Source: Alkalilimnicola ehrlichii MLHE-1 | Lineage (GTDB): Bacteria; Pseudomonadota; Gammaproteobacteria; Nitrococcales; Halorhodospiraceae | Direction: 5' to 3' | DNA: 32,000 bases | NCBI RefSeq assembly: GCF_000014785.1 | Contig: NC_008340.1 | Location: 2,700,001-2,732,000 of the forward strand | Shown: piece after piece, positions 8,607 to 24,118 of the stretch | Position numbering within the stretch: position 1 is the stretch's first letter | Layout: each line of letters starts with the position of its first letter | Made by a program: the position numbers and the translations under genes | Notes under the pieces: model-generated | Told to the model about the DNA's origin: nothing | The model's database searches: none | The model's input: only the letters and a program-made list of their open reading frames with translations

Positions 8607-9877
8607 GCCTCCTCCCGCTGAATGGTGACCCGGCCGGCGATGCGCTCACCCCGGCTGGCCGCGGAGTGGATCTGCACCTGCCAGTCGCCCCGCGCCTCCA
8701 CCGCCTCGCGCAGCCGCTCCAACGCCTGCACGCTGGCGGCGTCCAGGTCCAGTTCCAGCCGCTGCTGGCGGAAGGCGAGGCTGCGCAGCCGGGGGGCATC
8801 GTCGCCGGTCAGGGCCGGCGCGACCGCATTGAGCACGGCGATGAAGGGGTCGGACCGGCGCTCCGGGCCGCCCTCGCCACCACCGTCCAGTTCGGCCAGT
8901 GCCCGCTCCATCTGCACCCGCGGGTTGACCACCCGGCTGTCGGGGAAGGTGTCGCGGAAGATCTCCACGGTCTCGGCGCGCAGGGCCTGTTCGGTGCGCT
9001 CCAGGTTGCGCACCTCGGCATAGAGCATGACGAATTGCAGGCCCACCCAGGCCAGGGCCAGGGCCGCCACCGCGCGCCAGGGGCGCAGTCGCCGGAGCCA
9101 CTGCTCGCGCCCGCTGAAGGGGCCCTGGAGCAGATTGATCGCCTGGTGCGGATCGAACAGGGGGGCCAGGGCGCGCAGCGGACTGTCGGCCGCCGGCTGC
9201 TCGCTGACGGTGAGGGTGTCGGGCAGGGCCGCGCGCAGGGCCTCGACCTGCCCGGGGGCGGCGCCCGCCGGGTGGAGGGCCAGCCCGGCGGGGGCGCCCT
9301 CATCGCCGGCCTCACCGGCGGCCTGCGCCTGGGCCAGCAGCCGGGGCAGGATCAGCGGCCAGGCGTCGGCCTCCAGGGCCAGTCCGGCGCGCGGCCCGGT
9401 GCTGAGCCAGCCGGCCTGGTCGCCCAGGATCAGGCGCCAGTCGTCGTCCCCGGCACCGATGGCCAGTTCCAGCGGGGTGATCGTATGCAGTTCGAGGCCC
9501 TGCTCGGCGGCCCAGTGCAACCAGGTGGCCATGCGCTCGCGGTCGATGACCGCGGCGCTGTGGCGTCCGTCGGCCTCCGGCCGGCCCAGGGCGAAGTGCA
9601 GCCGGTCGGGATCGGCGGCGAGCTGGTCCTCCAGCGCCCAAGGCAGCGCCTGGCGGGCCCGCTGGCGGTTACGGGTGGGCAGCGTGGCCCGCAGGACGCT
9701 GACCTCGCCGGGTGGCAGCAACAGCCACACCCGGGCGCCCCGGGGCAGCCGGGTGGCGAGGTCGCCGGCCGGGGCCTCGCCGTGGTCGCCCACGCGGCCG
9801 TCGGCGTCCAGCAGGCACCATTCCACCGGGTCGTCCGCGGTGGGTGCGGTGGGTAGCAGCAGGCAGTATTGACTCAT
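8603..9877 (-). CDS. gspL: type II secretion system protein L
   Basis: The internal ATG at 9875-9877 gives 424 aa (MSQYCLLLPTAP...). A cytoplasmic actin-like domain is followed by one TM (WRAVAALALAWVGLQFVMLYA) and a periplasmic domain. It sits between gspK and gspM. Confidence 0.8.
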   Translation of the reverse strand: MSQYCLLLPTAPTADDPVEWCLLDADGRVGDHGEAPAGDLATRLPRGARVWLLLPPGEVSVLRATLPTRNRQRARQALPWALEDQLAADPDRLHFALGRPEADGRHSAAVIDRERMATWLHWAAEQGLELHTITPLELAIGAGDDDWRLILGDQAGWLSTGPRAGLALEADAWPLILPRLLAQAQAAGEAGDEGAPAGLALHPAGAAPGQVEALRAALPDTLTVSEQPAADSPLRALAPLFDPHQAINLLQGPFSGREQWLRRLRPWRAVAALALAWVGLQFVMLYAEVRNLERTEQALRAETVEIFRDTFPDSRVVNPRVQMERALAELDGGGEGGPERRSDPFIAVLNAVAPALTGDDAPRLRSLAFRQQRLELDLDAASVQALERLREAVEARGDWQVQIHSAASRGERIAGRVTIQREEA

Positions 9878-9902
9878 GGCCCCATCATACCCCCTGCCCC
9901 GG

Positions 9903-10721
9903 TCAACAGGCACGCAGCCGGCGCAGCACCACCTCGCCGGTGACGGCGTTGACGATGCTGCACTGGCGGTAACGCCGGTCGGCGCTGTCGACGACGATGT
10001 GCAGGCGCACCCAGTCCGGGCTGTCCTGGCCCTCGGTGTCCGGCGGCTGGTCCGGGTCCGCCTCGGTGGCGGCCAGGAGCCGGTCGGGGGCCCGGCGGGG
10101 GTTGATGGCGACACCCTGCGCCGGCACCGCGGTGACGTAGGGGCGCAGGGCCTGGAACAGCTCGGGCGTCACCCCGCGGACCAGGGCCAGCTCGCTGGCG
10201 GTGGCCAGGCGGGTCCCCGGGTTGCTGTAGGGGGGCTGCTGGCCGGCGTACCAGGGGTCGTGCACCTCCGGGTCCATCCAGTCGCGCAGGGCGGCCAGCA
10301 CACCGTCCGGGTCCACCGCACCGAGTCCGTGGTCGGCGGCCACGTCCTCCAACAGCCGGAGGAAGGTCTCGGCGCTCGCCTCGTCCTCGGGGTCGGCGAG
10401 GTTGTTGAGGTTGAACCGGCAGTGCAGGTCCTCGGCCACCACCTGCACCGCCTGACCGTCCAGGGGCACGACCACGGGCGGCGTGCGGCAGTCCTCCCAG
10501 GGCACCGCGTCCGGGTTATCGGCCAGCAGGCGCAGGGCCTGGGCCGCCAGGGCCTCGCCGCTGGCGGCGTGCCAATAGGCCTGGTCGTGTTCCAGCAGGT
10601 TGCCGGTGCGGCGGATGTCCAGGTGCTGGCGGGTGGTCATGGCGACGGTGGCGATGGTGGCCAGCGCCACCACCAGCAGGGCGGTGATCAGGGCCACCCC
10701 CCGTTGCCGCCGCCGCGCCAT
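9903..10721 (-). CDS. gspK: type II secretion system minor pseudopilin K
   Basis: The internal ATG at 10719-10721 gives MARRRQRGVALITALLVVALATIATVAM, a GspK-type prepilin-like N-terminus lacking Glu5. Conserved GspK blocks are present (RFNLNNL, ATASELALVRGVTPELFQALRPYVTA). Confidence 0.8.
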   Translation of the reverse strand: MARRRQRGVALITALLVVALATIATVAMTTRQHLDIRRTGNLLEHDQAYWHAASGEALAAQALRLLADNPDAVPWEDCRTPPVVVPLDGQAVQVVAEDLHCRFNLNNLADPEDEASAETFLRLLEDVAADHGLGAVDPDGVLAALRDWMDPEVHDPWYAGQQPPYSNPGTRLATASELALVRGVTPELFQALRPYVTAVPAQGVAINPRRAPDRLLAATEADPDQPPDTEGQDSPDWVRLHIVVDSADRRYRQCSIVNAVTGEVVLRRLRAC

Positions 10722-10723
10722 GG

Positions 10724-12766
10724 CTACTCCGCCTCCACCGCCTGCTCGGCGACGGCGGCGAAGGGCGCCAGCCATTGCCGCACCCGCGCGCGGAGCTCCT
10801 CGTCCTCGGCGATCCGATCGGCGATGGCCGGGCTGAAGTGGTAATAGAGGCTGACCAGCTCCTGCCCGGCACGGCTGGTCAGCAGGGCCTCGTCGCGGAA
10901 CTGGCGCAGGGTGGCCACGGGCGCATCCCATTCACTGCCCCAGGCGGCGGTGGCAATGAAGCAGCCGCCACCTCCGCCACCACCCCCAGTGCCGTTGTCT
11001 CCGTCCGGGGCGCCGTTGTCGCCATTGCCGTTATCGTCGTTGCCGTTGCCGTTGTCGTCGTTGCCGTTGCCGTTGTCGTCGTTGCCATTGTCGCCATTGT
11101 CGTCGCTGGTCGCCACGTAGCTCGCCGAACCCGAGCAGGCGCGCACACTGGCCCGCTCGGCGCAGACCCGGTAGGTGATGGTCTCGCCCTCGTCCAGTGC
11201 CGGGGAGACGACGGCCTCCTGGTCCCCGCTCTCCAGGGTGACCCCGCCGGTGGCCTGGAAGTCGGCGTCCGCATCGTCGCAGCCGTCGCCCTCGCAGTGC
11301 TCCAGCGCCAGCGCATCGAGCTGATAGCTGTTGTTCAGCCAGGTCAATTCCAGCTCCGAGGTATCGGGCAGCGGGTTGATCCGCAGCCGGCTCGGGGCGA
11401 AGGGCGGCAGACCGGCCAGGTCGACGGTGAGGGCGTCGTAGGCGTTCACGATGCCGCCGGTGGCGGTCAGCCCCTCCCAGTCCGGGCTGGCATTCAGCCG
11501 GGCGGACATCAGGAGGCGCTCCCGCACCGCCTGGTAAGGGGTATCGACGCCGTGCTGGGCCAGCACCAGGCCGGCGATGCCGACCACGTGGGGTACAGCC
11601 ATAGAGGTGCCCGAACGGAATTCGTAGGGGTCTGGCCGGTCCGGCCGGTCCACCACGGCACTCAGGATATCAACGCCGGGCGCGGCCAGGTGGACGTCGG
11701 TCTCCCCAAAATTGGAGAAACTCGCGCGCTCGTCGTCCTCGTCTGAGGCCGCGACCGAGATGATGTTGTCCAGCCGGTAACTGGCCGGCCAGAAGCCCGT
11801 CGGCTCGTCCGATTCCGTGTCATTCTCCTCACCCGCGTTCCCCGCCGCGGCCACCACCAGGACCCCCTGCTCACCGGCTGCCCGCAGGGCCGCCTTGAGG
11901 GTGTCGTCCTCGCCGTCATCCCGGAGCGGACTTTCATCGGTGCCGAAACTGGCGTTGATGACCCTCACCCCTTCATCGACCAACGCCTCCACGGCCGCAA
12001 TCACGTCGGCAAAGGACCCTTCGACCCGGTTCGGGCCAGCGACCTCCAGCGCGGCGTGGCTGTACAGCGAGACCTGGAGATTCACGCCGGCCACCCCCTC
12101 CCCCTCAGCCGCGATCACGCCGGCGACATGGGTGCCATGATCCTCCGGCTGAGAATCGTCGAACTGGGAACCGGTCCCCGCCACGTTCTGCTGCAGATCG
12201 GGATGGGCCGTATCGATCTCGGTGTCCACCTGGCCCAGTCGCACCGCCGGGTCACCGGTGGTCAGGTCCCAGGCCTGCGGCACATCGATGGCCGGCAGGT
12301 TCCATTGCTGGTCATAGAACTCGGGCTCCGGGTCGAGCTGGGCGGCGTAGACCCGGTAGTTGGGCTCGACATAGGCCACCGCCGGGTCCTCGGCGTAGGC
12401 GGCGATGGCCTCCTCCAGGCTCATCCAGGACGGCAGCCGAACATGCTCCGCGTTACCGGTGCGAAAGCGCCGGACCACATTGGCGCCCACCAGGGCATGA
12501 GCCGCCCGCATACGCGGCTCGGTCTCCGCCGCGTCCCCGGCCGGCCGGATCAGCAACTCCCCCGGCACACAGCAGTCCGGGTTGTCCCGGACCGTCTCGA
12601 TCAGGGTGCGGGCCGAAGCCGGCAGGGCCGCCAACCGCTCCGCTGAGAGCGCGGCCACCCGCCGGTCGTCCTCCGGCGGTTCCAGGCCTCCGCTCAGCAG
12701 CGGGGGCAGCAACAGTGCCGCGACCAGCGCGGCGGCCATCCATGCAGTGAAGAGGCGCATCTTCAT
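10724..12766 (-). CDS. secreted subtilisin-family (S8) serine protease with I9-like propeptide, Asp/Asn/Gly repeat linker and CFIATAAWG C-terminal module
   Basis: 680 aa with a signal peptide (MKMRLFTAWMAAALVAALLLPPLL). Catalytic motifs are VDTEIDTAHPDL (Asp), HGTHVAGVIAA (His), AAAGNAG (oxyanion Asn) and SGTSMAVPHVVG (Ser). The tail reads G8-CFIATAAWGSEWDAPVATLRQFRDEALL...YYHFSPAIA. Confidence 0.9.
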   Translation of the reverse strand: MKMRLFTAWMAAALVAALLLPPLLSGGLEPPEDDRRVAALSAERLAALPASARTLIETVRDNPDCCVPGELLIRPAGDAAETEPRMRAAHALVGANVVRRFRTGNAEHVRLPSWMSLEEAIAAYAEDPAVAYVEPNYRVYAAQLDPEPEFYDQQWNLPAIDVPQAWDLTTGDPAVRLGQVDTEIDTAHPDLQQNVAGTGSQFDDSQPEDHGTHVAGVIAAEGEGVAGVNLQVSLYSHAALEVAGPNRVEGSFADVIAAVEALVDEGVRVINASFGTDESPLRDDGEDDTLKAALRAAGEQGVLVVAAAGNAGEENDTESDEPTGFWPASYRLDNIISVAASDEDDERASFSNFGETDVHLAAPGVDILSAVVDRPDRPDPYEFRSGTSMAVPHVVGIAGLVLAQHGVDTPYQAVRERLLMSARLNASPDWEGLTATGGIVNAYDALTVDLAGLPPFAPSRLRINPLPDTSELELTWLNNSYQLDALALEHCEGDGCDDADADFQATGGVTLESGDQEAVVSPALDEGETITYRVCAERASVRACSGSASYVATSDDNGDNGNDDNGNGNDDNGNGNDDNGNGDNGAPDGDNGTGGGGGGGGCFIATAAWGSEWDAPVATLRQFRDEALLTSRAGQELVSLYYHFSPAIADRIAEDEELRARVRQWLAPFAAVAEQAVEAE
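11018..11104. repeat. In-frame 21-bp tandem repeat (about 4 copies) inside the S8 protease gene
   Basis: gttgccgttgccgttgtcgtc occurs at 11039-11059 and 11060-11080, with degenerate copies on either side. It encodes the DDNGNGN repeats of the linker. Confidence 0.9.
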
Positions 12767-13401
12767 CGGTCGTTCTCCTTGCGCGGGAGGGCGAAAAGCC
12801 GGGTCACCGCCCCGGTGTGCTCCGCTTCCAGTTCAATCTCGACGGCGAGGGGCAGGTCCGCATTGGGCTGCTCCGGTGGGGGCCAGGCCCGGCTGGTGGT
12901 CCGCTCCCCGTCCAGGCCATGGTAGTGGAAGACGAAGGCGAGTACCTCCACGGTGTTGCCGGCCACCTCCCCCAGCATGGGCACCCGGCTTTGCGGCTCA
13001 TCCATGCCGCCGTCCACGGTGGGCCAGAGCAGCCGGTAGAGCACGCCGTCCTCCAGCTCCCAACCCACCCGTCGCAGCTCCGAGCGCACGCCGCGACTGC
13101 GCGCGCCAGCGCTCACCAGTTCCAGCCGCGGGGGCAGGCGCAGGTCGTCGAGCATCAGCCCGGGGCGGCGGTCGCCGTAGGCATCGCGCCGGGGCCGGTC
13201 CACCACCTGGTGCAGATCCCGCTGCAGCATGGCGAAGGCCAACTGCATCTCATCCAGTCGCTCCGCGGCCCGGTCGGTGTGCGCCCGGGCGTCCAGCACC
13301 GAGGTGAGGCCGCCGTAGGCCATGGCGGCCAGCAGGGAGAAGACCGCCATGGCCACCAGCAGCTCCAGGAGGGTGAAACCGCGCGACCGGTCAGAGGCCA
13401 T
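12763..13401 (-). CDS. gspJ: type II secretion system minor pseudopilin J
   Basis: The internal ATG at 13399-13401 gives MASDRSRGFTLLELLVAMAVFSLLAAMAYGG, a prepilin cleavage/methylation motif G-FTLLE. It is 212 aa and lies between gspI and the protease gene. Confidence 0.85.
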   Translation of the reverse strand: MASDRSRGFTLLELLVAMAVFSLLAAMAYGGLTSVLDARAHTDRAAERLDEMQLAFAMLQRDLHQVVDRPRRDAYGDRRPGLMLDDLRLPPRLELVSAGARSRGVRSELRRVGWELEDGVLYRLLWPTVDGGMDEPQSRVPMLGEVAGNTVEVLAFVFHYHGLDGERTTSRAWPPPEQPNADLPLAVEIELEAEHTGAVTRLFALPRKENDR

Positions 13402-13840
13402 CGAAGCCCCCCTCCTCCAGGTCATCGATCGTCCCCAGGCGGCCCCCCTCCGGGACCAGCACCACGCGGGCGGTGGCCAGGGGCTGTTGCTCGCGCGCCT
13501 GGTCGCGGTGGACCGCCACCTCCAGCCGGCGCAGCCCCGGGATGCCCGGCAGGCCCTCCAGCTCCGGCGCCCAGGGCGCCATCGTCGCCCGCCAATGCCA
13601 GTCGCGCCCGCCGAGACGCTCGACGCCTTCGGCGGGGCCGGACTCGGGCAGTGCCTCCAGCCGCGCCTGGAAGCGGTTGAGCTGATTGGCAGCCACCCAG
13701 TGGGCATGGGTCCGGTCGCGCAGATAGGCGGCGTTGGCGGCGTTCTCGCTGGCCACCTTGACGGCCGCGCCCAGGGCGGTGGCCAGGATGGCCAGCGCCA
13801 CCAGCACCTCCAGCAGGGTAAAGCCCCGTTGCCTAGCCAT
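13391..13840 (-). CDS. gspI: type II secretion system minor pseudopilin I
   Basis: The internal ATG at 13838-13840 gives MARQRGFTLLEVLVALAILATALGAA and the GspI-like block AYLRDRTHAHWVAANQL. It is 149 aa. Confidence 0.85.
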   Translation of the reverse strand: MARQRGFTLLEVLVALAILATALGAAVKVASENAANAAYLRDRTHAHWVAANQLNRFQARLEALPESGPAEGVERLGGRDWHWRATMAPWAPELEGLPGIPGLRRLEVAVHRDQAREQQPLATARVVLVPEGGRLGTIDDLEEGGFDGL

Positions 13841-14375
13841 CGGGCGCCTCCGTGTGCAGGCGCAGGCGCCCGGCCATGTCACCGGTGACGACCCGGATCC
13901 GGTCCGGGTCGCGCTGATCGCGCAGCGTGAGCTGGAACTCCGTCACCTCGCCGGTCCCATAGAGGTAGAGGTGGGGGTCGGGCTGTTCGGGCCGGTAGTC
14001 CAGGCGGACGTCCACGCCCTCCAGGCGCAACGCCAGTTCCATGTCCTCCGGCTCCAGGTCGCGGGGCCGGAGCTGGCGGTCGCGGTCCACCGGCAGCCAG
14101 GTGGTGAGGCCGTCCTCCACCTCCACCTCGTGCAGGAAGTGGTAGCCGTGCCGGGTCACCCCCACGGCCAACTCCGGGCCGCCGAGCATGACCTCCTGGC
14201 GGGCGAGGTCCACCAGGCTGATGAAGCGCCGGGCCTGCTCCTCCAACTGGCGGTCGCGGCCGCCATCGCCCACGGAGAGCACGGCGAGGCCGGTGAGCAA
14301 CCCCAGGATGATGATGACCGCCAGCAGCTCGAACAGGGTGAAGCCGGCGCTGGCCTTGGCGGGGCGGGGCATCAT
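13833..14375 (-). CDS. gspH: type II secretion system minor pseudopilin H
   Basis: 180 aa. The N-terminus AGFTLFELLAVIIILGLLTGLAV is a prepilin motif. It lies between gspG and gspI. Confidence 0.8.
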   Translation of the reverse strand: MMPRPAKASAGFTLFELLAVIIILGLLTGLAVLSVGDGGRDRQLEEQARRFISLVDLARQEVMLGGPELAVGVTRHGYHFLHEVEVEDGLTTWLPVDRDRQLRPRDLEPEDMELALRLEGVDVRLDYRPEQPDPHLYLYGTGEVTEFQLTLRDQRDPDRIRVVTGDMAGRLRLHTEAPDG

Positions 14376-14381
14376 CCGGCG

Positions 14382-14816
14382 TCAGTCCAGCGCCCAGTTG
14401 CCGATCTCCGCGTTGACGCCGGAGCCCCCCGGCTGACCGTCGGCACCGTAGCTGAAGATGTCGATGTCGCTGTGCTCGCCCGGGTTGAGGTATTGGTAGT
14501 CGTTGCCCCAGGGGTCCTTGGGCAGCCGGTCCAGGTAGCCGCCCTCGCGCCAGTTGCGCGGCTCGGGATTGCCGGTGGGCCGCTCCACCAGCGCCTCCAG
14601 GCCCTGGTCGGTGCTGGGATAGACGTTGTTGTCCAGGCGGTAGAGGTTGAGCGCGGACTCGATGGCGCGGATATCGGAGCGCGCCTTGCTGATCCGGGCG
14701 TCGTCGGGACGGTCCATGATCCGCGGCACCACGATACCGGCGAGGATGCCGAGGATGACCACCACCACCATGATCTCGATGAGGGTGAAGCCGCTTTGCC
14801 GTTGTCTAGCCATCAT
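14382..14816 (-). CDS. gspG: type II secretion system major pseudopilin G
   Basis: 144 aa. [34 protein letters not shown] plus the conserved blocks [33 protein letters not shown] and [16 protein letters not shown] lies upstream. Confidence 0.95.
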
Positions 14817-14845
14817 GCACTGGGACTCCTCAAGGGGTTACGGGC

Positions 14846-14899
14846 GCCACTATTGCGCCAACTGCCACTATTGCGCCAACTGCCACTATTGCACCAACT
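14846..14899. repeat. 18-bp tandem repeat x3 spanning the gspF stop codon and the gspF-gspG spacer
   Basis: gccactattgcgccaact occurs at 14846-14863 and 14864-14881, and gccactattgcaccaact at 14882-14899. On the coding strand each copy carries an in-frame TAG. Confidence 0.9.
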
Positions 14900-16100
14900 G
14901 ATTGAGTTCGAAGACCGGCAACAGGATGGCAAGCACGATCACCATGACCACGCCGCCCATGAGCAGGATCAGCAGCGGCTCGAACAGCCCCAGGAACATG
15001 CCGGTGAGGCTCTCCAGCTCCCGCTCCTGGTTCTCCGCCGCCCGGTCCAGCATCTGCTCCAGCTTGCCACCGGCCTCGCCGCTGGCGATCAGGTGCACGG
15101 TGATGGGCGGGAAGTAGCCGGTCCGTTCCAGGGCGTGGGCCAGACCGCTGCCCTCGCGCACGCGCCGGGCGGCCTCCTCCACCCCGCGCCGCATGGGGTC
15201 GTTGTTGACCACCGCGCCGGCCACCCGCAGCGCCTCCAGCACCGGCACGCTGCTGGCGGTGAGGATGCTCAGGGTGCGGGCAAAGCGGGCGGCGTTCACC
15301 CCCCGGGTCAGGCGCCCGATCAGGGGCAGTCGCAGCAGCAGGCTGTGCAGGGCGTAACGGGGCCCGGGCCGGCGCAGGATCCGGGCCAGCACCAGCAGCC
15401 CCACGATACCGCCGATCAGGCCGTAGAGGGCATAGTCGCGCATGAAGTCGCTGGTGACGATCAGCGACTGGGTGAGCAGCGGCAGATCCTGACCGATGTG
15501 GTCGAACACCCCCACCACCTCCGGCACCACGTAGGTGAGCAGGGTGAGGGTGACGCCGATGGCCATGACCGTGAGGATGATCGGGTAGAACAGCGCCATC
15601 TGCACCTTCTGGCGCATCTGCTGGCGGCCCTCGGTGTATTCCGCCAGCCGCTCCAGCACGATGTCCAGGTGGCCGGACTTCTCGCCGGCGGCTACCGTGG
15701 TGCGGTAGATATCGGGGAAGACGTGGGGGAAATCGCCCAACCCCTGGGCCAGGGTGTGACCCTCCAGCACGCGGTTGCGCACCGCCAGCATCAGGCTCTT
15801 GAGGCGGGGCTTGTCGGTCTGCCGGGAGACGGTGCGCAGGACGTCCTCCAGCGGCAGGCCGGAGCGCACCAGGGTGGCCATCTGGCGGGTGATCAGGGCC
15901 AGATCGGTGGCGCTGACCCCGCGGGTGAACAGCGGCCGGCGCACCGCACGCGCCTCCCGCTCCACCACGGCCTGCACGGCCAGGGGCGTAAGCCCGCGGT
16001 CGCGCAGTTGGGCGCGGACGTGACGCGGGGTGTCCCCCTCGAGCACACCCTTGCGCTGGCGGCCGCCCGGATCCAGTGCCTGATACTCGTAGGCGCCCAT
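14886..16100 (-). CDS. gspF: type II secretion system inner-membrane platform protein F
   Basis: 404 aa. MGAYEYQALDPGGRQRKGVLEGDTPRHVRAQLRDRGLTPL is the typical GspF N-terminus. Two repeated T2SSF domains and three TM segments are present. Confidence 0.95.
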   Translation of the reverse strand: MGAYEYQALDPGGRQRKGVLEGDTPRHVRAQLRDRGLTPLAVQAVVEREARAVRRPLFTRGVSATDLALITRQMATLVRSGLPLEDVLRTVSRQTDKPRLKSLMLAVRNRVLEGHTLAQGLGDFPHVFPDIYRTTVAAGEKSGHLDIVLERLAEYTEGRQQMRQKVQMALFYPIILTVMAIGVTLTLLTYVVPEVVGVFDHIGQDLPLLTQSLIVTSDFMRDYALYGLIGGIVGLLVLARILRRPGPRYALHSLLLRLPLIGRLTRGVNAARFARTLSILTASSVPVLEALRVAGAVVNNDPMRRGVEEAARRVREGSGLAHALERTGYFPPITVHLIASGEAGGKLEQMLDRAAENQERELESLTGMFLGLFEPLLILLMGGVVMVIVLAILLPVFELNQLVQ

Positions 16101-16258
16101 GCCCTATGCCTCGCCGGCCTCCCTGGCCCGTGGTGGTTCGCTGTGTGTGCTCATTCAGCGCAGGATACCCCACCCTGCGGCGGACCGTGAAGCGGCCTGA
16201 CGGCCCTGCCGCGGTGGCCAGCCACGGCCTTGGGATATGATGGCAGGGGAACGGACGC

Positions 16259-16738
16259 ATGCCGGTGGCGATAGGGGGCGATGGCTTGCAGGCGAACCCG
16301 CTGTACCCATTCAAGGATTGGTTGTTTCTGGCCGCACTGGCCGCCGGGCCGGCCGGGGCGCTGGCCTGGGTGATATTGACCGGGGAGCGGGCCGGCGACG
16401 GCAACCTGCTGACGCCCTGGCCCCTATTGATGCTGGTGGTGGTCTACCCGGTGCTCGAGGAGCTGGCCTTCCGCGGGTTGATTCAGGGGCTGCTGCTGCG
16501 TCCGCACTGGGGCCGTTACCGGGCGGGCCCGGTGAGCCTGGCCAATGCCCTGACCACCCTGGCCTTCGCCCTCAGCCACTGGCCCCGCGGCGGGGCGCTG
16601 CTGGCGCTGGGGGTGATCCCACCGGGGCTGATCTTCGGGTACTTCCGGGAGCGGCACGACGGGCTCTGGAGCCCGATCCTGCTCCACGGCTGGTATAACC
16701 TCTGCGTGATCACGGTGACGGCGACCTGGCCCGCCTGA
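16259..16738 (+). CDS. CPBP-family (CAAX protease / Abi) glutamic-type intramembrane protease, minimal 159-aa form
   Basis: Polytopic membrane protein with all three CPBP motifs: EELAFR (E67,E68,R72; gag gag at 16457-16462), FALSH (F103,H107) and HGWYN (H143,N147). It is divergent from gspF and convergent with the tagged CLCA-like gene. Confidence 0.85.
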   Translation: MPVAIGGDGLQANPLYPFKDWLFLAALAAGPAGALAWVILTGERAGDGNLLTPWPLLMLVVVYPVLEELAFRGLIQGLLLRPHWGRYRAGPVSLANALTTLAFALSHWPRGGALLALGVIPPGLIFGYFRERHDGLWSPILLHGWYNLCVITVTATWPA

Positions 16739-16763
16739 GCGGGCGCCGCGGGAAGAAACAAGC

Positions 16764-16787
16764 GGCCGGCGGGGGATCCCGCCGGCC
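16764..16787. terminator. Perfect 10-bp GC hairpin between convergent genes (possible bidirectional terminator)
   Basis: ggccggcggg (16764-16773), loop ggat, cccgccggcc (16778-16787). On the minus strand it is followed by the T-rich cttgtttcttcc. No clear T-tract follows on the plus strand. Confidence 0.45.
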
Positions 16788-16822
16788 GGTGGGTGGGTTA
16801 AGGGGGCCGGGGCCCCGCGCGC

Positions 16823-16951
16823 TCAGGCGCGGTGGCGACGACGGCCCAGGATGACGCCGAGCAGGGCCAGGATGGCCAGCAGCGGCAGGGTCGGGTCGGC
16901 GGGGCCACCGGCACTGTTGCCCGCCACGCTGCAGGCGGAACCCCGGCGGGT
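16823..16951 (-). other. C-terminal sorting tag copy 1 (TRRGSACSVAGNSAGGPADPTLPLLAILALLGVILGRRRHRA)
   Basis: Tripartite tail preceded by an acidic run (DEDEEEFEM): Cys-containing motif, hydrophobic helix, Arg cluster at the extreme C-terminus. It matches the tail at 20826-20954 at 31 of 42 residues. Confidence 0.8.
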
Positions 16952-19741
16952 CATCTCGAACTCCTCCTCATCCTCGTCCGTGATCCGGTCCGGTTCCGCG
17001 GGCTGGTCCGAGCTGATCACCGAGCCGGCGCTGACCTTGTAGGTGCCCTCGTCGGCGGTCTCATCCTCATGCTCGACCGTGACCACCAGGTCCTGCAGCT
17101 CCGCACCGCCAACCATACCTTCGTCATTGGCGGTCTCCAGCCAGTCCCGATCCAGGACGGTGTAGAGGTAGCCGTTGCGGGCGACGAAGTCCTCATCGTC
17201 CAGGCTGAAGGTCAGCAGCACCTCGCTGCCATCGCCGGTGTAGATCGTCACGATGGGCTGCATGCCCAGGCCAAAGGATGCCACCCGCAGAGAGACATCG
17301 CCCTCGTCCGGGACGCTGGTACCGACCAGGCGGAAGCAATCCCTATCGCTGGCGGCATCGATCCGCCCCGGGATAGTCGTGTTATCGGCCTCGAGCGGCG
17401 TGCAGGCGCCCGGCAGGGCGGGATCATCCGCGTGATCGTCGTCCTGAAAACCATCCACGGTGAACTGCGTGGTCGCCACGCGCTGGAAGTTCTCCGGGAT
17501 CGGCTCCGGATCCGGGGCCTGCACCTCCATGCCATTGATGTCCGGCGCCGGGGCCACACCCCCGTACACGAACTGGCCGGTCCCGGCCTGGTTGTCCACC
17601 CGGACGCGCAGCTCGTGGGTACCACCCTGCCGGTAGTTCACCACGGCCGAGTAGATGCCATCACCGGCCTCCGCGTCACCGTTCTGGCCCTCGTCGTTGA
17701 GCGGCACGGTGGTGACGTTCCCGTCGGGATCGGTCAGCTCGGCGACCACATTGACCCCCGAGACCATCCGCCCGGCGGAGATCGCGGCCGAGATCAGCGC
17801 GGGTGACGGGTATTCCACCGTGCTGCCACCCAGGGTACTGACCCGCACGTCAAAGGTCCGACCGTCCGCCGGGTTGGCCACCACATTCAGGAGCACCTCC
17901 ACTTCACCGCCGGAGGTATTCTCCCCGGTGTCGACGGTCCAGTCGCCGACGCCACCCGCCGATACCGCGTCGCGGTCCACGGTGGCGAGGCAGGAGACCT
18001 CATCGGCTGACTCGTCGCAGCTGAACGGGATTCCGGTGTCGTTGCCGTCACTGTCCAACAGCGTGGGGGACAACTGGTCGGCACTGCCGGTGAAGTTAAG
18101 GAGCACGGTCATCGAGCCCAGGGTGGGGTCCACGGTGAAGGTGAGCCGCTCGTTGGCGCCCGCAGCGACCGGCTGCGACTCCTGACTCAGGTTGACCGCA
18201 TCGGACACGGCGGCGTTGGCCGCCAGGAAGGCCTCCTGGATCTCGGCCAGGGTCGTGGGTGAGGCGAAGAACTCACCGCCGGTGTTATCGGCGAGCCGCC
18301 GCAACACCCCGGTGGGTGCGAAGCTGCCATAGCCGAAGGCGATGATGGGGACGTTGGCATCCTGGTAGGCCTGGACGGTCTGCGGCTCTGTCGCAGCGGA
18401 GCTGTTGTCGCCACCATCGGAGAGCAGGAAGGCCACCTGCCCGGCATCGGTATCGTTGGCGGCGCTGTAATCCTGCAGTTCGTCCAAGCCCAGTATCAGG
18501 CCATCGAACATGGCGGTCAGCCCGGAGGCCGGGAGGCTGTCGATGGCGTCCTTGAGCTGGTCCTTTTCCGCCGTACCCGGGTCCGGGATGGCGATCATGG
18601 GGTGGACCACCGAGGCACTCGCCGAGAAGCGCACGACGCCCATGGCGGTACGGCCAGGCTCGACCACATCCACCAGGGTCCGACCGGCTGTGCGGGCGTT
18701 GATGATGGGAGCGCCGCTCATGCTCCCGGAGGTGTCGACAATGAGCGAGATCTCCAGGTCATCGTCCATCCAGACGATCTCCAGCTCATCGCGGCAACCG
18801 TGATCCATCTGATCGAGCTGGGTGACCACCCAGTTATCCGCCGCCGTCGGCGCCACGGCCTCCAGGGCCGTATACCGGGTCCGGTCAGGCTGAACGGTCT
18901 CGTTACCCTCCTGTGGATCGTCGGTGGTGGGTTGGACCAACACCTCCCAGCCGCTCTTGCCGTAGACCCGGCCCTGGGCGGTATCCTCCGGATCGCCGAT
19001 GTTGTCACTGGTGGAGTGGTTCAACCACTCGTAGTTACCGCCGCGGGCCTGCCACTGGCTGTTCATGATGGCCGGGCTGGTGGGCACATCGCCAACCTGC
19101 GGGAAGGTATCGCGATTCTCCGCCGGGTCGCGCCCCTCGTACTCATCATACAGGGCAAGCACGTAGTGGCCCCACTCGTGCCCCAGGGTGTAGCCGGCGC
19201 CCTCGGCATCGGCCAGCATGTCGTAGTCGCAGCCATTACCGCAGCCGTCGGGGAAGATATCCCCCATCCAGATGTGCCGCCCGGCACTGCCGAACCCCGC
19301 GATACTGGCCCGCGGCCACTCCTCCTCGTTCCAGATAATGTCGGCCCGGGAGCCGTGGCCGCCGTTGGTGAAGACCCGCACGGTACCGAGCTGGCTGGCC
19401 CCGTTGCTCTGCTCGCAGACCGAGTCGGCGAAGTGTTCGATCACGGCCTCGTAGGGATCCCGCTCGTTTTCGGTCTCCGGGTTGTTGTGCAGGGAAATGG
19501 TGATATCGAAGACGGTCGTGCCGGCGTCCGTGGAGGCCCCCACCACCCGGTCGCTGCCCGCGGCGGTGAGGCCCTGGGCGCTCGCCGGGGCCGTATCGGC
19601 ACCGATCCGCGCCTTGGAGAACCAGGAATCCCCGGCGGAGAGCGGTGCGCTGATCATGGCGGCGCTGAGGCCGGCGCAGAACAGCCCGGTGTACCAGGAC
19701 CGCCGTTTCTCGACATGGCGGTCGACGTGTCTGATGTTCAT
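16823..19741 (-). CDS. secreted CLCA-like zinc metalloprotease - VWA domain - PPC domain protein with C-terminal Cys/TM/Arg sorting tag
   Basis: I chose the ATG at 19739-19741 (AGGAAGAGGAG upstream; MNIRHVDRHVEKRRSWYTGLFCAGLSAAMISAPLSAG signal peptide), giving 972 aa. HEWGHYVLALYDEY (HEWGH encoded at 19166-19180) matches the CLCA-type HExxH...DEY metallohydrolase motif. VWA MIDAS residues are present (DTSGSMSG, GLTAM, LSDGGDN). A pre-peptidase C-terminal-like domain follows (GRIDAASDRDCFRL). For the tail, see the tag feature. Confidence 0.85.
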   Translation of the reverse strand: MNIRHVDRHVEKRRSWYTGLFCAGLSAAMISAPLSAGDSWFSKARIGADTAPASAQGLTAAGSDRVVGASTDAGTTVFDITISLHNNPETENERDPYEAVIEHFADSVCEQSNGASQLGTVRVFTNGGHGSRADIIWNEEEWPRASIAGFGSAGRHIWMGDIFPDGCGNGCDYDMLADAEGAGYTLGHEWGHYVLALYDEYEGRDPAENRDTFPQVGDVPTSPAIMNSQWQARGGNYEWLNHSTSDNIGDPEDTAQGRVYGKSGWEVLVQPTTDDPQEGNETVQPDRTRYTALEAVAPTAADNWVVTQLDQMDHGCRDELEIVWMDDDLEISLIVDTSGSMSGAPIINARTAGRTLVDVVEPGRTAMGVVRFSASASVVHPMIAIPDPGTAEKDQLKDAIDSLPASGLTAMFDGLILGLDELQDYSAANDTDAGQVAFLLSDGGDNSSAATEPQTVQAYQDANVPIIAFGYGSFAPTGVLRRLADNTGGEFFASPTTLAEIQEAFLAANAAVSDAVNLSQESQPVAAGANERLTFTVDPTLGSMTVLLNFTGSADQLSPTLLDSDGNDTGIPFSCDESADEVSCLATVDRDAVSAGGVGDWTVDTGENTSGGEVEVLLNVVANPADGRTFDVRVSTLGGSTVEYPSPALISAAISAGRMVSGVNVVAELTDPDGNVTTVPLNDEGQNGDAEAGDGIYSAVVNYRQGGTHELRVRVDNQAGTGQFVYGGVAPAPDINGMEVQAPDPEPIPENFQRVATTQFTVDGFQDDDHADDPALPGACTPLEADNTTIPGRIDAASDRDCFRLVGTSVPDEGDVSLRVASFGLGMQPIVTIYTGDGSEVLLTFSLDDEDFVARNGYLYTVLDRDWLETANDEGMVGGAELQDLVVTVEHEDETADEGTYKVSAGSVISSDQPAEPDRITDEDEEEFEMTRRGSACSVAGNSAGGPADPTLPLLAILALLGVILGRRRHRA

Positions 19742-19823
19742 TGCGTTCTCCTCTTCCTTCTTTCGCCTTTGCTCAACAGAATCTGCTCCCTGCTTGTTGG
19801 CTACGTCCTGTTCGATCAGTCGG

Positions 19824-20627
19824 TCAGTGCCGTTGGAAGATCTGGACCAGACCCGATGCCTCCCCCACGGCGGCGCGATAGGCACGCCCCGGTTCTATTC
19901 CGAGGCCCGCGAGATCGTCCGTGCCACAGGGGGCGAGGGGCACAAAGCGGCCCGGGTTGGCCTCGGCCTCCTGCAGCTCAGGGTGGTCAGCCAGGGTGTC
20001 TGCCGAAACCGCCACCTGGGGCGACCGGCGCGCGCCCTCCGGCGCGGGCAGAAATTGGAGGTAATGACCCTCCGGCTGTTCAGTGAGGGACACCTCAGCG
20101 GTCAGTACCTGGAGCGCATCGGCCAGCGCCGCGAGGGCCTCAGGCAACGCCTCAGGCTCCCCGCTCCCGATAAAGCGCTTGCCCGCCGGGCTCCGATAAG
20201 CGAAGTACAGCCGTGTCGGCCGGAAGTCGGAGATAGGCCCGTCCGCTTCCGGTCGGGCCAACGTGTGATCGCCGGTGAGGTACTGCGAGAGGGCGTGGAA
20301 TCGCGCCGGTGCAATGCGACCGGAACGCACCTCCGGAAGGGCGCCATCCGTGCGGTAGTGGGCCGTCTGGAGTCGACCCGCGGCATCCAGGCGCACGGTA
20401 TGGCCGTCGGTATGGCGGCCACCCAGCCCCCCTTCAATGCGGGCCATGTAAACGAAGGCCGCCCCGGGTACGCCGCCATCGGCGTGCACCGGGGCCACAG
20501 GCAGTCCAACCGCGGCCACCAGGCCCAGCATCACCCCCAGGGCCAGCCCCACACACCACCCCCTGTCGGGGAAGCGGTGCAGCCGATTCGGATCCGTTGG
20601 AGTGATCAGGCACATGGTTACCGCCAT
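19824..20627 (-). CDS. hypothetical secreted/periplasmic protein
   Basis: Start chosen at the ATG at 20625-20627 (GGAGAGG upstream); the ATG at 20613-20615 is an alternative. N-terminal hydrophobic segment GWCVGLALGVMLGLVAAVGLPVAPVHA. I recognise no domain. It lies between the two tagged cargo genes. Confidence 0.55.
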   Translation of the reverse strand: MAVTMCLITPTDPNRLHRFPDRGWCVGLALGVMLGLVAAVGLPVAPVHADGGVPGAAFVYMARIEGGLGGRHTDGHTVRLDAAGRLQTAHYRTDGALPEVRSGRIAPARFHALSQYLTGDHTLARPEADGPISDFRPTRLYFAYRSPAGKRFIGSGEPEALPEALAALADALQVLTAEVSLTEQPEGHYLQFLPAPEGARRSPQVAVSADTLADHPELQEAEANPGRFVPLAPCGTDDLAGLGIEPGRAYRAAVGEASGLVQIFQRH

Positions 20628-20825
20628 TGGCCTCTCCGTTCCGCAATCTGCAGGCACGCAAAGCGCATCACCACACTCTGCGAGCCGCAGCTGGGCATCC
20701 CTGCAGCCAGCCCCACAATCCAGCGGAGGGCGGGGTGCGCCAAACGAGGTCTACGCACCGACCGCCTCATCCCTAAGGTGGTCGGCGCGCAGCCCGGGAA
20801 CCTCCTTCAAGTCGTCAGCGTGACT

Positions 20826-20954
20826 TCAATCTGCGCGACGGCGACGGCCGACCAGGGCGCCGAGCAGGGCCAGGACGGCCAGCAGCGGCAGGGTCGGGTC
20901 GGCGGGACCCGCCGCACCGGTACCGGTCACGCTGCAGGCGGAGCCCCGGCGGGT
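20826..20954 (-). other. C-terminal sorting tag copy 2 (TRRGSACSVTGTGAAGPADPTLPLLAVLALLGALVGRRRRAD)
   Basis: Same tripartite tail after an acidic run (DDPDDEEHE). Nucleotide blocks 20859-20909 and 20928-20955 match 16856-16906 and 16925-16952 with 2 and 1 mismatches. Confidence 0.8.
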
Positions 20955-22676
20955 CCGTTCATGCTCCTCGTCGTCGGGGTCGTCCACCACGCCGTCCAAG
21001 GCCTGGGCAAGGACCGTGTTGCAGTCACTCTCGTCGGTGGTCACCGCGAGCCCCTGGAAGACCTCAGACTCGTCGTCATCGTTGGCCCGCATCTCCACCT
21101 CGATCTGCACATAGCGGCCCTCGACGCCATCCGGCAGCGGCTCTCCGGGCGTGAAGACCTGGAAAGGGGCGGCTTCCAGGGCCTCGAGAGAGTCTGCGGC
21201 ACGGATGCGGTAGGTACTCTCCGCGTTCTCGGGGGACTCGGTGATGCTGACGCAGCTATCGGCCCAGACGTACTCCGGAATGTCCTCCTCCTGGGTTCCA
21301 CCCACCTGAGCCGCGGCCACCGTGCCGCCGCCGGCCGCGCCGAGCACCTCTCGCACGTGGCCATCGACAATGATCCGGCCGATGCCCGTGCGACGCCCGA
21401 GGCCCCGGGTACCCAGGCCCGTCGCATCGCTATAGGTGTAGGGCCCGGCACCGGAGAGGAAGACCCCGAGGGGCTCGCCATCCTCGCCGCGGTACTTGGA
21501 CAGGCGGTCATGATTGACGTGAATGGCCCAGACATCGCCGTTGGCGTCCAGCACCACGCCACGCACATGCCCGGTGTCCTCCTGCGCCGGGGACTCCCAG
21601 ATCAGATCGCCATCGGGGGTGTATTTGGCCACGCCCCCGGCAGAGGAGTCGCCCACCACGACATTGCCGTCGGGACCGTAGGCGATCCCCAGCACGCTCA
21701 TGTTGTCGTCACTGGGGTCATCGAACTCCTCCGTTGCCTTATTGAAGCGAATGAAGGGGTTAACGCCCAAGAAGACGTAGTCGTCGGAAACGGCAATCCC
21801 GTAATTGGACCCGAACCCTGAATGACTGTGTCTGGCCACCCACTCCCCGGTGTTGGTATTCAGCTGGCCCAGGTCACTGCCGAGGGCAGCACTCCAGAGC
21901 ATCCCGTCCCCATCCACCAGACAGCCATAGGGGGTATGGCCTTCCGTGTCGATTGGCCCCTGCAGCACCTGACCGGTGTCGCTGTCCAGCTGGTAGTAGG
22001 CCTGCCCCCTGTACATGCCCAGCCAGATCTGACCGTCGTTGTCGATGCACAGCGAGCGCCCCAAGTCGTTGTCATTGCCCACGGTGACGTGCCAGGCGAT
22101 CCGGTCGTCCTGCAGGTCCTCCGGATCCACCCGGCCGGTGTTGTTGGTGTCCTCCAGGGGCATCATCTCGGTGTCCGGGTCGATCATCCCCTCGCCATCC
22201 TCGTTGCGCGAGGTGTTCACCTGGCCGTCGCCCGCGTGGTCCACCGCCTCTTCATTCAGGATCTTGAGCACGGCGGGCGGCCGTCCGTCAAAGTGGCGGT
22301 TGGCGACATAGACATTCCCGCGGCTGTCCACCGCGGTACGGGAGGGCGCGGGGCCACCCCACGGGGAGCTGCTGGCCTGCTCGGGGAAGAAGGTCCAGTA
22401 GCGCGCCAGTTCCACCCCGGTGTTGGTGTCAATCTTGGACACCGAGGCCTCACCGGCATTGGCGACCCAGATGATGGGGAAGGTGGAGACCTCCTCGCTC
22501 ACCCGCATGACCCCATTATCGAACAGCAGCCCATTGTGCGTGCCGTTCTCTTCGATATCCTGGGGCAAGACCACGATACCTGCACCGTGACTCGCTGTGC
22601 TAGCTGCCAGCAGCAGGGCGCCCACGCTCGCACCCAGGCCAACCCGGCCAACCCGATTCTTGATTAACGGTTTCAT
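20826..22676 (-). CDS. secreted beta-propeller repeat protein with the same C-terminal Cys/TM/Arg sorting tag
   Basis: Start chosen at the ATG at 22674-22676 (GAGGAGG 6 nt upstream). Signal peptide MKPLIKNRVGRVGLGASVGALLLAASTASHGAG. Blade-like repeats are present (DSRGNVYVAN, IDNDGQIWLG, VDGDGMLWSA, GPDGNVVVGD, TPDGDLIWES, LDANGDVWAI), resembling NHL or Vgb-lyase-type propellers. For the tail, see the tag feature. Confidence 0.8.
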   Translation of the reverse strand: MKPLIKNRVGRVGLGASVGALLLAASTASHGAGIVVLPQDIEENGTHNGLLFDNGVMRVSEEVSTFPIIWVANAGEASVSKIDTNTGVELARYWTFFPEQASSSPWGGPAPSRTAVDSRGNVYVANRHFDGRPPAVLKILNEEAVDHAGDGQVNTSRNEDGEGMIDPDTEMMPLEDTNNTGRVDPEDLQDDRIAWHVTVGNDNDLGRSLCIDNDGQIWLGMYRGQAYYQLDSDTGQVLQGPIDTEGHTPYGCLVDGDGMLWSAALGSDLGQLNTNTGEWVARHSHSGFGSNYGIAVSDDYVFLGVNPFIRFNKATEEFDDPSDDNMSVLGIAYGPDGNVVVGDSSAGGVAKYTPDGDLIWESPAQEDTGHVRGVVLDANGDVWAIHVNHDRLSKYRGEDGEPLGVFLSGAGPYTYSDATGLGTRGLGRRTGIGRIIVDGHVREVLGAAGGGTVAAAQVGGTQEEDIPEYVWADSCVSITESPENAESTYRIRAADSLEALEAAPFQVFTPGEPLPDGVEGRYVQIEVEMRANDDDESEVFQGLAVTTDESDCNTVLAQALDGVVDDPDDEEHERTRRGSACSVTGTGAAGPADPTLPLLAVLALLGALVGRRRRAD

Positions 22677-22740
22677 TTCCATCCTCCTCAGCAAACCGGT
22701 GGAGCGGCCCCGTTCAGGGCCCCGCCCCGCCCCAAGTTAG

Positions 22741-23805
22741 TCACTGCCCTGTGCGGGGCGAATGCATGTATGCGGGCTGCGCAAACACCAGCGACGGCTC
22801 CGCACCATCGACCCGACCGCGAAACAATTCCGCTGCACCGCCCTTTTGCGACACGAAGACAACCTCCCCCCCATCATTTGGCAGCCAGACCGGCTGAGCC
22901 AGCTGTCCGTCAAGGGTGGCGACCGTTACCGGTCGGCCGTCATCGGGGAAGCGGGAGGCGTAGATATTGGTCTTGGTCTCCTCCGGAGCGGGGGTCGCCG
23001 TGGAGGCATAGACGAGCCAGTCCCCGTCGGTGGACCAAACCGGGAAACCCCGTACGTTGCCCGGGGCGGACGCGACCTGCTCCGAGTGGCCCTCCTGAAC
23101 GTGCAACACGTAAAGTTGCACCTCGCGGCGGTTATCGGTGGAGGCGGTATAGGCCAGGTAATCGCCGCTGGGGTGCCAGGCGAGGGACTGCACATTCCCG
23201 GCATGCCGGTCATTGGGCACCAGGATACTGTGCCCGTCGTCCTCAAGATCGATCACCATGATGGCATTGCCACCCTCGCCCCCGGGCCGCGCGATGACAG
23301 CCAACTGCCCCCCATCCGGCGACCAACGCAGGGCCTCCGGAGAACGCACCGCCTCGCTGAGCAACCGCGCCTCCCCGGTGGCCAGGTCCAGTAGGAAGAC
23401 CCCGCGCGGACTGACCCGGCTGGAGGTGAAGGCGAGATAATCGCCGGAGGGGTGCCACTGGGGCATGAAGTCCATGCGCTCGCTGTGGGTGAGACGTTGC
23501 TGGTTGCTGCCGTCTGCGTCCATCAGGTAGATATCGCCGTTGCCGTCCCGCCGGGAGACAAAGGCAATCCGCTGGCGGTCAGGCGACCAGCGCGGGTCCA
23601 TGTCGGAGTGGGCCGGATCGGTCAACCGGACAATCGCGCCATCATTAAGACTGGCCGAGTAGATGCTCTGTGCCCCTTCCTGGTTGGAGACGAAGAGCAC
23701 GGCCGCGTCATCAGGCTTATCGTCCGCCGCCAGGGCCATACCCGGCAGGACCATGAGCCCGACCAGGAGGCCCAACCACCCTTGTTTGCGCTTACTCACT
23801 AACAA
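22741..23805 (-). CDS. periplasmic TolB-like PD40 (WD40-like) beta-propeller protein
   Basis: Signal peptide (KRKQGWLGLLVGLMVLPGMALA) followed by PD40-type repeats (PRWSPDRQRIAFVSRRDGNGDIYLMDADGSNQQRLT, PQWHPSGDYLAFTS, LRWSPDGGQLAV, LAWHPSGDYLAYT, PVWSTDGDWLVYAS). The track ORF starts at a TTG (23803-23805); a GTG at 23797-23799 is equally plausible. It overlaps the upstream small gene. Confidence 0.75.
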   Translation of the reverse strand: MLVSKRKQGWLGLLVGLMVLPGMALAADDKPDDAAVLFVSNQEGAQSIYSASLNDGAIVRLTDPAHSDMDPRWSPDRQRIAFVSRRDGNGDIYLMDADGSNQQRLTHSERMDFMPQWHPSGDYLAFTSSRVSPRGVFLLDLATGEARLLSEAVRSPEALRWSPDGGQLAVIARPGGEGGNAIMVIDLEDDGHSILVPNDRHAGNVQSLAWHPSGDYLAYTASTDNRREVQLYVLHVQEGHSEQVASAPGNVRGFPVWSTDGDWLVYASTATPAPEETKTNIYASRFPDDGRPVTVATLDGQLAQPVWLPNDGGEVVFVSQKGGAAELFRGRVDGAEPSLVFAQPAYMHSPRTGQ

Positions 23806-24118
23806 TCACCCTTGTCTCGGCCAGCGGGGCGCCCGACGGGGAATAGGCCCGGAGCCGGTATTCGCCCGGCGCCATCCCCTCCAGCTCGAAGCGCAACGCA
23901 CCGTCCTCATCGGCCCGGATCGATTCAATGGTGTGACCACCACCCTCCCGGATCAGGTCCAGGTGCAATTCGGCCTCCGGCTGAAAGTTACCGCCCTGCA
24001 CCACTACGGTATCGCCCTCGTACAGCCCACTAGGAACGGTGAGAAAGGCACTTTGGGCTGTCACTATTCCCGGCAGGACGAGCGCGCCCGCAGACAACCA
24101 GGTCATCAGTCTTTTCAT
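23792..24118 (-). CDS. small secreted hypothetical protein (about 108 aa)
   Basis: Internal ATG at 24116-24118 with AGGAGAAG upstream. Signal peptide MKRLMTWLSAGALVLPGIVTAQSAF. The mature part looks all-beta (possibly Ig-like or carboxypeptidase-regulatory-like). It is the first gene after the AT-richer spacer. Confidence 0.55.
   Translation of the reverse strand: MKRLMTWLSAGALVLPGIVTAQSAFLTVPSGLYEGDTVVVQGGNFQPEAELHLDLIREGGGHTIESIRADEDGALRFELEGMAPGEYRLRAYSPSGAPLAETRVIVSE

Follow-up and report, generated by a model that had tools for sequence, protein, structure and literature searches.

Why do two otherwise unrelated genes of Alkalilimnicola ehrlichii MLHE-1 end in nearly the same DNA sequence? 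The question arises in a stretch of 32,000 nt of the chromosome (NC_008340.1, positions 2,700,001 to 2,732,000 of the forward strand), which we call the window and within which all positions are numbered. The initial annotation noticed that the last 42 codons of two genes, named here P1 and P2, form a cassette repeated at a constant offset of 4003 nt. The copy at the 3' end of P1, T1, occupies positions 16823-16951 of the minus strand including the stop codon and encodes TRRGSACSVAGNSAGGPADPTLPLLAILALLGVILGRRRHRA, and the copy at the 3' end of P2, T2, lies at positions 20826-20954 of the minus strand, again including the stop codon, and encodes TRRGSACSVTGTGAAGPADPTLPLLAVLALLGALVGRRRRAD. Our answer, to which we give a probability of roughly three in four, is that both copies are JDVT-CTERM sorting tags, and that they are alike at the DNA level by descent and recombination, namely tag capture followed by homogenisation, rather than by chance or by selection at the nucleotide level.

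The counts behind the cassette were recomputed at the fixed offset of 4003 nt and came out exactly as annotated: 2 of 51 nt differ between 16856-16906 and 20859-20909, 1 of 28 nt differs between 16925-16952 and 20928-20955, and 31 of the 42 tail residues are identical. Over the whole of 16823-16951, T1 and T2 differ at 24 of 129 nt and match at 105 (81% identity), and a repeat finder independently reported the pair (D7) as 16836-16972 and 20839-20975, with 82% identity over 137 nt and the same spacing of 4003 nt. Random pairs of 129 nt drawn from the window (n = 200,000; the window is 69% G+C) had a mean identity of 28.6%, and none exceeded 50%. The decay of the match outside the tail was likewise seen, since the 100-nt flanks on either side are only 27-35% identical, which is the random level, and BLASTP of the tail-less P1 and P2 bodies gave a best E of 9, as expected if the passenger domains are unrelated. 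To call the cassette near-identical is a slight overstatement: two of its blocks, TRRGSACSV and GPADPTLPLLA[I/V]LALL, are indeed near-identical, but the other two are divergent and make the tail a mosaic. The second of these blocks, with the Gly that follows it, is the central block of the tag (16856-16906, minus strand, partner 20859-20909), in which the 2 differences out of 51 nt are found. The repeat is not an assembly artefact, because three independent assemblies are 100% identical to the window in the parts that they cover, L002 containing both tails, L004 T1 only, and L005 ending short of T1.

The tag had gone unrecognised as an already described domain. Both copies score above the cut-off of 27 bits of the JDVT-CTERM model NF033191, with 36.4 bits for the P1 tail (residues 981-1017 of 1020) and 33.7 bits for the P2 tail (residues 583-619 of 622). 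JDVT-CTERM and its protease MrtJ were described in silico by Haft (bioRxiv 10.1101/2023.06.07.544157). In that description, the tag contains a single invariant Cys, a near-invariant DP about nine residues further on, a Leu-rich helix and an Arg cluster, and a proteome typically has only one client, usually adjoining the protease gene. Both window tails have this tripartite layout, GSACSV ... LPLLA(I/V)LALLG(VIL/ALV)G ... RRR(HRA/RAD), with one Cys each. Judged by its profile scores, the 42-residue tail is the known JDVT-CTERM sorting domain, carried by two unrelated and putatively exported proteins. Neither tail reaches the 20 bits required by the MYXO-CTERM model (TIGR03901), their scores being 15.5 and 17.5; on this measure both are related to MYXO-CTERM, yet not members of it.

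In order to compare the tags between lineages, the closest MrtJ homologs were used to locate orthologous loci in metagenome assemblies, which gave L086-L088 (MrtJ 88% identical) and L092 (77%). The Asp-Pro is present in T1, T2 and the tails of L086 and L092, with a Cys-DP spacing of 12 residues in this lineage; most of the tails that we obtained from other species have a spacing of 9. Among the determinants that had been annotated as invariant, the Cys, the DP, the Leu-rich helix and the Arg cluster hold family-wide, but RR-G-S-A is lineage-specific: L092 has QPSSGGGC where the window tails have RTRRGSAC. The presence of two JDVT-CTERM clients at this locus is unlike the typical, though not defining, single client. 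When we ran a hidden Markov model (HMM) of our own for the tail over 80 MrtJ loci of other species, each locus yielded 0 or 1 client and never 2, with a limited sensitivity that left 43 of the 80 without a match. A tail of this length cannot attain significance across a whole database: its 42 residues gave no match in a word-indexed protein database, and a 45-residue version gave one dubious match in a library of 1.84 billion representative sequences. Degenerate DNA-pattern scans of metagenomes for the central block gave no match.

The initial annotation had also proposed that the tail is a recognition element read by one dedicated partner. As far as the sequence tells, this partner is identifiable as MrtJ, encoded directly beside P1 by a gene at 16259-16738 of the plus strand and belonging to the CPBP/Rce1-like glutamic intramembrane proteases. 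The mrtJ open reading frame (ORF; 159 aa) matches NF033192 with 101.4 bits against a cut-off of 75 and PF02517 with 66.4 bits against 22.4, and its motifs EExxxR, FxxxH and HxxxN (E67, E68, R72, F103, H107, H143 and N147) do not vary among the 24 homologs aligned. It reaches 51 bits with the Mrt_core model NF040914, under the cut-off of 100, and is also under the MrtX and MrtC cut-offs. The gene is convergent with P1, ending at 16738 while the P1 stop codon starts from 16823, which leaves a gap of 84 nt; P2 is 4 kb further away. A GC-rich terminator hairpin with a T-run (16763-16788, minus strand, 11 GC pairs) is located between the convergent P1 and mrtJ. MrtJ is thus predicted to be the cognate processing enzyme of both tags.

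We compared the codons used by T1 and T2 with those expected from window codon usage. T1 and T2 use the same codon at 25 of the 31 residues that they share, where 14.7 would be expected (P about 1e-4). In the conserved blocks (TRRGSACS and GPADPTLPLLA[I/V]LALL) this is the case for 21 of 23 residues, against 11.3 expected (P = 1.5e-5), and in the central block alone for 14 of the 15 shared residues, against 7.6 expected (P = 5e-4), while the variable blocks, with 4 of 8 for 3.4 expected, are saturated. The differences between T1 and T2 are clustered, in that stretches holding no more than one of them reach 49 nt (P = 7e-4), and the centre shows 1 silent difference over 16.8 silent sites. Could such identity result from protein-level constraint on a short recognition element and a strong bias for G+C at third codon positions (GC3), with no recent exchange? 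GC3 is 0.82-0.93 in these genes, so chance sharing of codons is common, as the 14.7 expected out of 31 indicates, and the most alike block is also the part of the domain that is most conserved family-wide. However, the observed sharing is well above this expectation, whereas the same residues compared between species merely reach it: T1, T2 and L086 each share with L092 5-6 codons over 13-15 conserved central residues, for 6.6-7.8 expected, and the central blocks of L086 and L092 show 9 silent differences over 15.3 silent sites. Silent sites of the central block therefore drift freely between species, and their identity within the genome must be recent. In addition, the T1 and T2 centres have five derived states in common relative to L086 and L092, including V to A (PVDP to PADP) and F to L (LALF to LALL). 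Constraint on the protein combined with codon bias is already largely refuted by these data, and we judge it very improbable as the whole explanation.

The interspecies comparison also bears on the second option of the initial annotation, very strong selection partly at the nucleotide level, which fails because the central-block codons are at expectation between species. Selection could keep the copies alike by acting, for instance, on a structured RNA, on an antisense element or on a binding site within the tail-coding region, and the closeness of the P1 tail to the strong terminator hairpin speaks for an element of this kind. The hairpin, however, is outside the repeat and absent 3' of T2, and no Rfam match was obtained anywhere in the window; with the silent sites of the orthologous tails varying as freely as they do between L086 and L092, we find this explanation hardly credible.

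L086-L088 and L092 are laid out as gspF-mrtJ-P2-TolB-like, with a single client adjoining mrtJ and without P1 and ORF267, the ORF that separates P2 from P1 in the window. These loci pass the JDVT-CTERM and MrtJ models (JDVT-CTERM scores of 37.2 bits for L086 and 42.7 for L092). The 3' end of their P2, comprising the acidic linker, the tag end GVILGRRRHRA, the stop codon and the hairpin-containing intergenic region, aligns with T1 and not with T2, which ends in GALVGRRRRAD and is followed by an intergenic region unrelated to that of T1. The terminator hairpin is conserved 3' of P2 in both L086 and L092; in the window no terminator was found after P2. T1, which is carried by P1, is the ortholog of the P2 tail of the related lineages. 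In terms of synonymous divergence (dS), T1 is at 0.22 and T2 at 0.65 from the L086 P2 tail, with 0.37 between T1 and T2, and T1 differs from T2 at 25 nt and from L086 at 15 nt. No substitution is unique to T1, while 13 are unique to T2, all of them in the two variable blocks, and the contrast between centre and flanks is significant (Fisher P = 0.005). The central block is probably a gene-conversion tract, and the 3' end of P1 is probably homologous to that of the ancestral P2 as far as about 16978, acidic linker included. From this comparison we infer that P2 is the ancestral single client of MrtJ and P1 the newcomer. The first option of the initial annotation, a tail recently transferred or homogenised by gene conversion or module shuffling, is supported by this orthology, by the mosaic of silent sites and by a crossover between the two tails in a sister strain, described below.

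A simpler history would be that one recent duplication put the whole P2 tail on P1, and that T2 then diverged fast in unconstrained blocks without any gene conversion. The distribution of unique substitutions, 0 in T1 and 13 in T2, is what such a history would give; the variable blocks vary between species too, a local ACCGGTACCGGT repeat is present in the first variable block of T2 (var1), and the 3' block can, on our reading of the sequence, be partly explained by paired 3-nt indels. It is harder to reconcile with the saturation of silent sites in the variable blocks of T2 next to a centre that is almost free of silent differences, with T1 having more differences from T2 than from L086, and with the absence from L086 and L092 of the derived states shared by the two centres. 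We consider this history unlikely and retain tag capture followed by homogenisation. A single Campbell-type crossover was rejected since it cannot yield a four-block mosaic. Two loci with a closer MrtJ, L006 and L089, have no recognisable client beside mrtJ and gave no help with the order of events.

The dS values of neighbouring genes against L086 (window 6515-24118) fall into two ranges, 0.29-0.55 for mrtJ and gspF-N, and 0.74-0.84 for P2, the TolB-like gene and a small ORF. The genes with higher dS have a lower GC3 (0.73-0.83 vs 0.86-0.97). We rejected this step at the tag as a breakpoint, as the ratio of the window-L086 to the window-L092 distance is similar for mrtJ and P2 and GC3 differs; the step is probably an effect of rate or codon bias and not of different history.

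The two clients have little in common besides the tag. P1 (16823-19741, minus strand, 972 aa) is putatively exported and contains a CLCA-like HExxH region, a VWA domain (Pfam, 52.5 bits), a choice-of-anchor X domain (NF041940 choice_anch_X, 49.5 bits) and a partial match to TIGR00868 (hCaCC). P2 (20826-22676, minus strand, 616 aa), also putatively exported, is a beta-propeller similar to NHL and Vgb-lyase proteins (Pfam NHL and Vgb_lyase). Judged by eye, both N-termini have a basic and then a hydrophobic stretch (MNIRHVDRHVEKRRSWYTGLFCAGLSAAMISAPLSA in P1 and MKPLIKNRVGRVGLGASVGALLLAASTASHG in P2). Apart from the vWA protein of MLHE-1, to which P1 is 100% identical, the closest homolog of P1 is 50% identical, and none is higher. 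A JDVT tail was found in 0 of about 100 P1 homologs, whose tails are IPTL-like, GlyGly-like or CFI-box-like or which have no anchor, and the choice-of-anchor X domain of P1 fits with this variety. As a separate observation, these homologs, which are CLCA-like VWA proteins (P0047-P0146), have at least four kinds of C-terminal anchor, or none, an illustration of the freedom with which this passenger family changes sorting tags. ORF267 (19824-20627, minus strand) encodes a hypothetical protein whose N-terminus is hydrophobic, and was predicted as a gene in L002 too. It has no family match in NCBIfam and Pfam profile searches and is absent from L001, a sister strain, as well as from L086 and L092. 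It is weakly similar to a partial gene just upstream of P0048, the P1 homolog nearest in sequence (L093, 2-304; 33% over 58 aa, pairwise E = 3e-4), which hints that ORF267 and P1 may travel as a pair.

The sister strain provides an allele in which the two tails have become one. A protein identical to MrtJ is also encoded by chromosome CP184336.1 (GCA_049200435.1; L001) and by a read-based contig (L003). In both, the flanks match the window at about 99% identity and BLAST shows window positions 16953-20832 to be absent; the loss is of exactly one repeat period, 4003 nt, and removes the P1 body and ORF267. The single remaining tail is chimeric, corresponding to T2 up to the I/V codon and to T1 from GVIL onward, including the region downstream of T1. 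In alignment A1 it is T2-like to column 151 and T1-like from column 170, which places the crossover in an 18-nt identical stretch, TCCTGGCCCTGCTCGGCG, at 16855-16872 of the minus strand (partner 20858-20875). The chimeric tail of L001 is still a valid tag, with 36.7 bits for JDVT-CTERM. A collapse of the repeat during assembly is unlikely as the source of this junction, because T1 and T2 are nowhere identical over more than 30 nt and because the junction is also present in the independent read-derived contig.

Since integration and deletion are formally reverse reactions, the single-client allele of GCA_049200435.1 could instead be ancestral, as single clients beside mrtJ in other lineages would suggest, and MLHE-1 would then result from Campbell-type integration of an ORF267-P1 circle that had its own JDVT tail. 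The blocks are distributed the other way: the L001 tail has the derived, T2-type var1 (VTGTGAA), while the ancestral-type var1 (VAGNSAG; compare VAGNGAT in L086 and IAGNSVG in L092) sits on P1 in MLHE-1, and deletion is favoured over insertion for this reason. Furthermore, the incoming foreign tail would have had to agree in its silent sites with the P2 tail of the related lineage (var1 shows 0 silent differences), yet P1 is without close homolog. We therefore hold an insertion to be quite improbable, and read the L001 allele as a deletion by crossover between the tags. In L001, P2 is itself split at window positions 21927-21930 by an insertion sequence (IS) element (L001 11670-13243, with a DDE_Tnp_1_4 transposase and a 4-bp overlap). 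With P1 deleted and P2 split, GCA_049200435.1 is left without an intact client at this locus, while its mrtJ is intact.

In the history that we propose, the ancestral locus would have had one client, P2, beside mrtJ. A segment of about 4 kb with ORF267 and P1 would have entered the A. ehrlichii lineage at the tag, so that P1 took over the original linker, tag and terminator of P2, and P2 was left with a second, more divergent copy of the tag. The recognition core would later have been homogenised over about 50 nt. The direct repeats of 130 nt appear to be recombination substrates still, and the crossover in the sister strain would be the event that removed P1 and ORF267. Several points weigh against this history or limit it. 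The four-block mosaic needs at least two events, and we do not commit ourselves to their exact history and order. Five sites group T2 and L092 against T1 and L086; four of them are silent C/T toggles that homoplasy could explain, but they could also indicate that T2 is of older or foreign origin. Across the locus the rate at silent sites varies about 2.5-fold, which makes dS on 43 codons imprecise. Two clients are found in one lineage only, so that co-evolution of tails within a genome is a single case, and the deletion allele comes from one strain, represented by one chromosome assembly and one read-based contig.

The clients and mrtJ sit mid-way in a complete operon for a type II secretion system (T2SS). 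The order of the locus is gspC, gspD, a 631-aa ORF, gspE, a small ORF, the TolB-like propeller, P2, ORF267, P1, mrtJ, gspF-J, an S8 protease, gspK-N and DUF432. The genes gspF, G, H, I and J, the S8 protease and gspK, L, M and N occupy 7327-16100 of the minus strand beside mrtJ (NCBIfam and Pfam assignments). On the other side, also on the minus strand, are the TolB-like gene next to P2 (22741-23805), gspE (24552-26099; TIGR02533, 701 bits), gspD (28254-30275; Pfam secretin match) and gspC (30272-31264; Pfam T2SSC match). Outside A. ehrlichii, at least seven species, from Chromatiales, Burkholderiales, Nitrosomonadales and other metagenome-assembled genomes, have gspE/F/G/D homologs no more than 10 kb from mrtJ (L006, L007, L011, L016, L031, L069 and L073), and this recurrent neighbourhood supports a link between both systems. 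The recurrent linkage is absent from the JDVT-CTERM paper (bioRxiv 10.1101/2023.06.07.544157), as is the context of the window, where the unit stands between gspE and gspF. By analogy with characterised systems, the clients would be exported by Sec and held with the tag helix in the inner membrane and the Arg cluster in the cytoplasm; the tag Cys would be modified, probably by lipidation, MrtJ would cut just after it, and the surrounding T2SS would move the cut client to the cell surface.

The closest experimental precedent is MYXO-CTERM, whose cleavage by MrtX depends on the Cys both in Myxococcus and in E. coli; the T2SS is required for surface delivery of its cargo (PMC11980579). The Myxococcus xanthus system has a homologous protease core and an invariant tag Cys, and both window tails match its tag weakly; Cys-dependent C-terminal cleavage and T2SS-dependent surface display have been demonstrated there by experiment. 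It differs in that its tag has no DP and often two Cys, and in that dozens of clients per genome are unlinked to the protease gene. GlyGly-CTERM and rhombosortase likewise combine a short C-terminal tag with a dedicated intramembrane protease that cuts before T2SS export, but the protease is of the rhomboid serine class and the signature motif is another one. Like GlyGly-CTERM and other choice-of-anchor cargo, the P1 homologs are one passenger family with different tags by lineage. With the JDVT-CTERM/MrtJ system itself, the window shares a tripartite tag scoring above cut-off, with its single Cys, a DP in the Leu-rich helix and an Arg cluster, as well as a CPBP protease gene directly beside a client and a gammaproteobacterial host whose family also includes Thioalkalivibrio, itself among the founding genera. 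It differs from that system by its two clients instead of one per proteome, by a Cys-DP spacer of 12 residues and not 9, by its place in the T2SS operon, and by nucleotide evidence of a tag moving between genes and mediating gain and loss of cargo.

This system is a published one with models in NCBIfam, and the locus is a tidy example of it. In the literature searched, we found no nucleotide-level tag capture, tag-tag deletion or gene conversion of a sorting signal; to our knowledge the evolutionary snapshot is new within that literature, although not surprising in kind. The rare two-client locus gives a view at nucleotide resolution of a tag passing between genes, and of duplicated tags that then add or remove cargo genes. 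A broader proposal, for which the chances seem to us evenly balanced, is that the tag is a portable DNA module: a horizontally acquired surface-protein gene would have joined the resident MrtJ and T2SS through recombination at the tag of the resident client, and the tags would then convert each other and mediate precise loss of the new client, with gain and loss in one species. If this is general, recombination between tags would be a route by which "choice-of-anchor" families change anchors between lineages. The position of mrtJ and its clients inside a T2SS operon offers genomic support for the idea that JDVT-CTERM cargo may be exported through the T2SS, and T1, T2 and the chimeric tail are variants supplied by nature with which the tag residues that MrtJ needs could be probed.

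Other features of the window were recorded. The S8 subtilisin-like protease between gspJ and gspK (10724-12766, minus strand), conserved in L086, ends in a CFI-box-CTERM (NF041770, 83.7 bits), and may represent a second type of Cys-containing C-terminal tag linked to the same T2SS. Several distant P1 homologs carry CFI-box-like tails (GGGGCFI...). The 631-aa ORF (26255-28150) is on the plus strand, opposite to gspE and gspD between which it stands; it has a gene-like GC3 of 0.85, is called as a gene in L001 and L002, and has no Pfam or NCBIfam match. A tandem repeat of 18 nt in three copies (GCCACTATTGCGCCAACT, 97% matches) occupies 14846-14900 in the short gap between gspF and gspG. Finally, two GC-rich repeat arrays at 309-878 and 5936-6485, with periods of 127, 99, 34 and 29 nt and 86-97% matches, are mutually related and inverted; with no Rfam match, they flank a block of fatty-acid, PHA synthase and MscS genes and look like REP-type intergenic elements.

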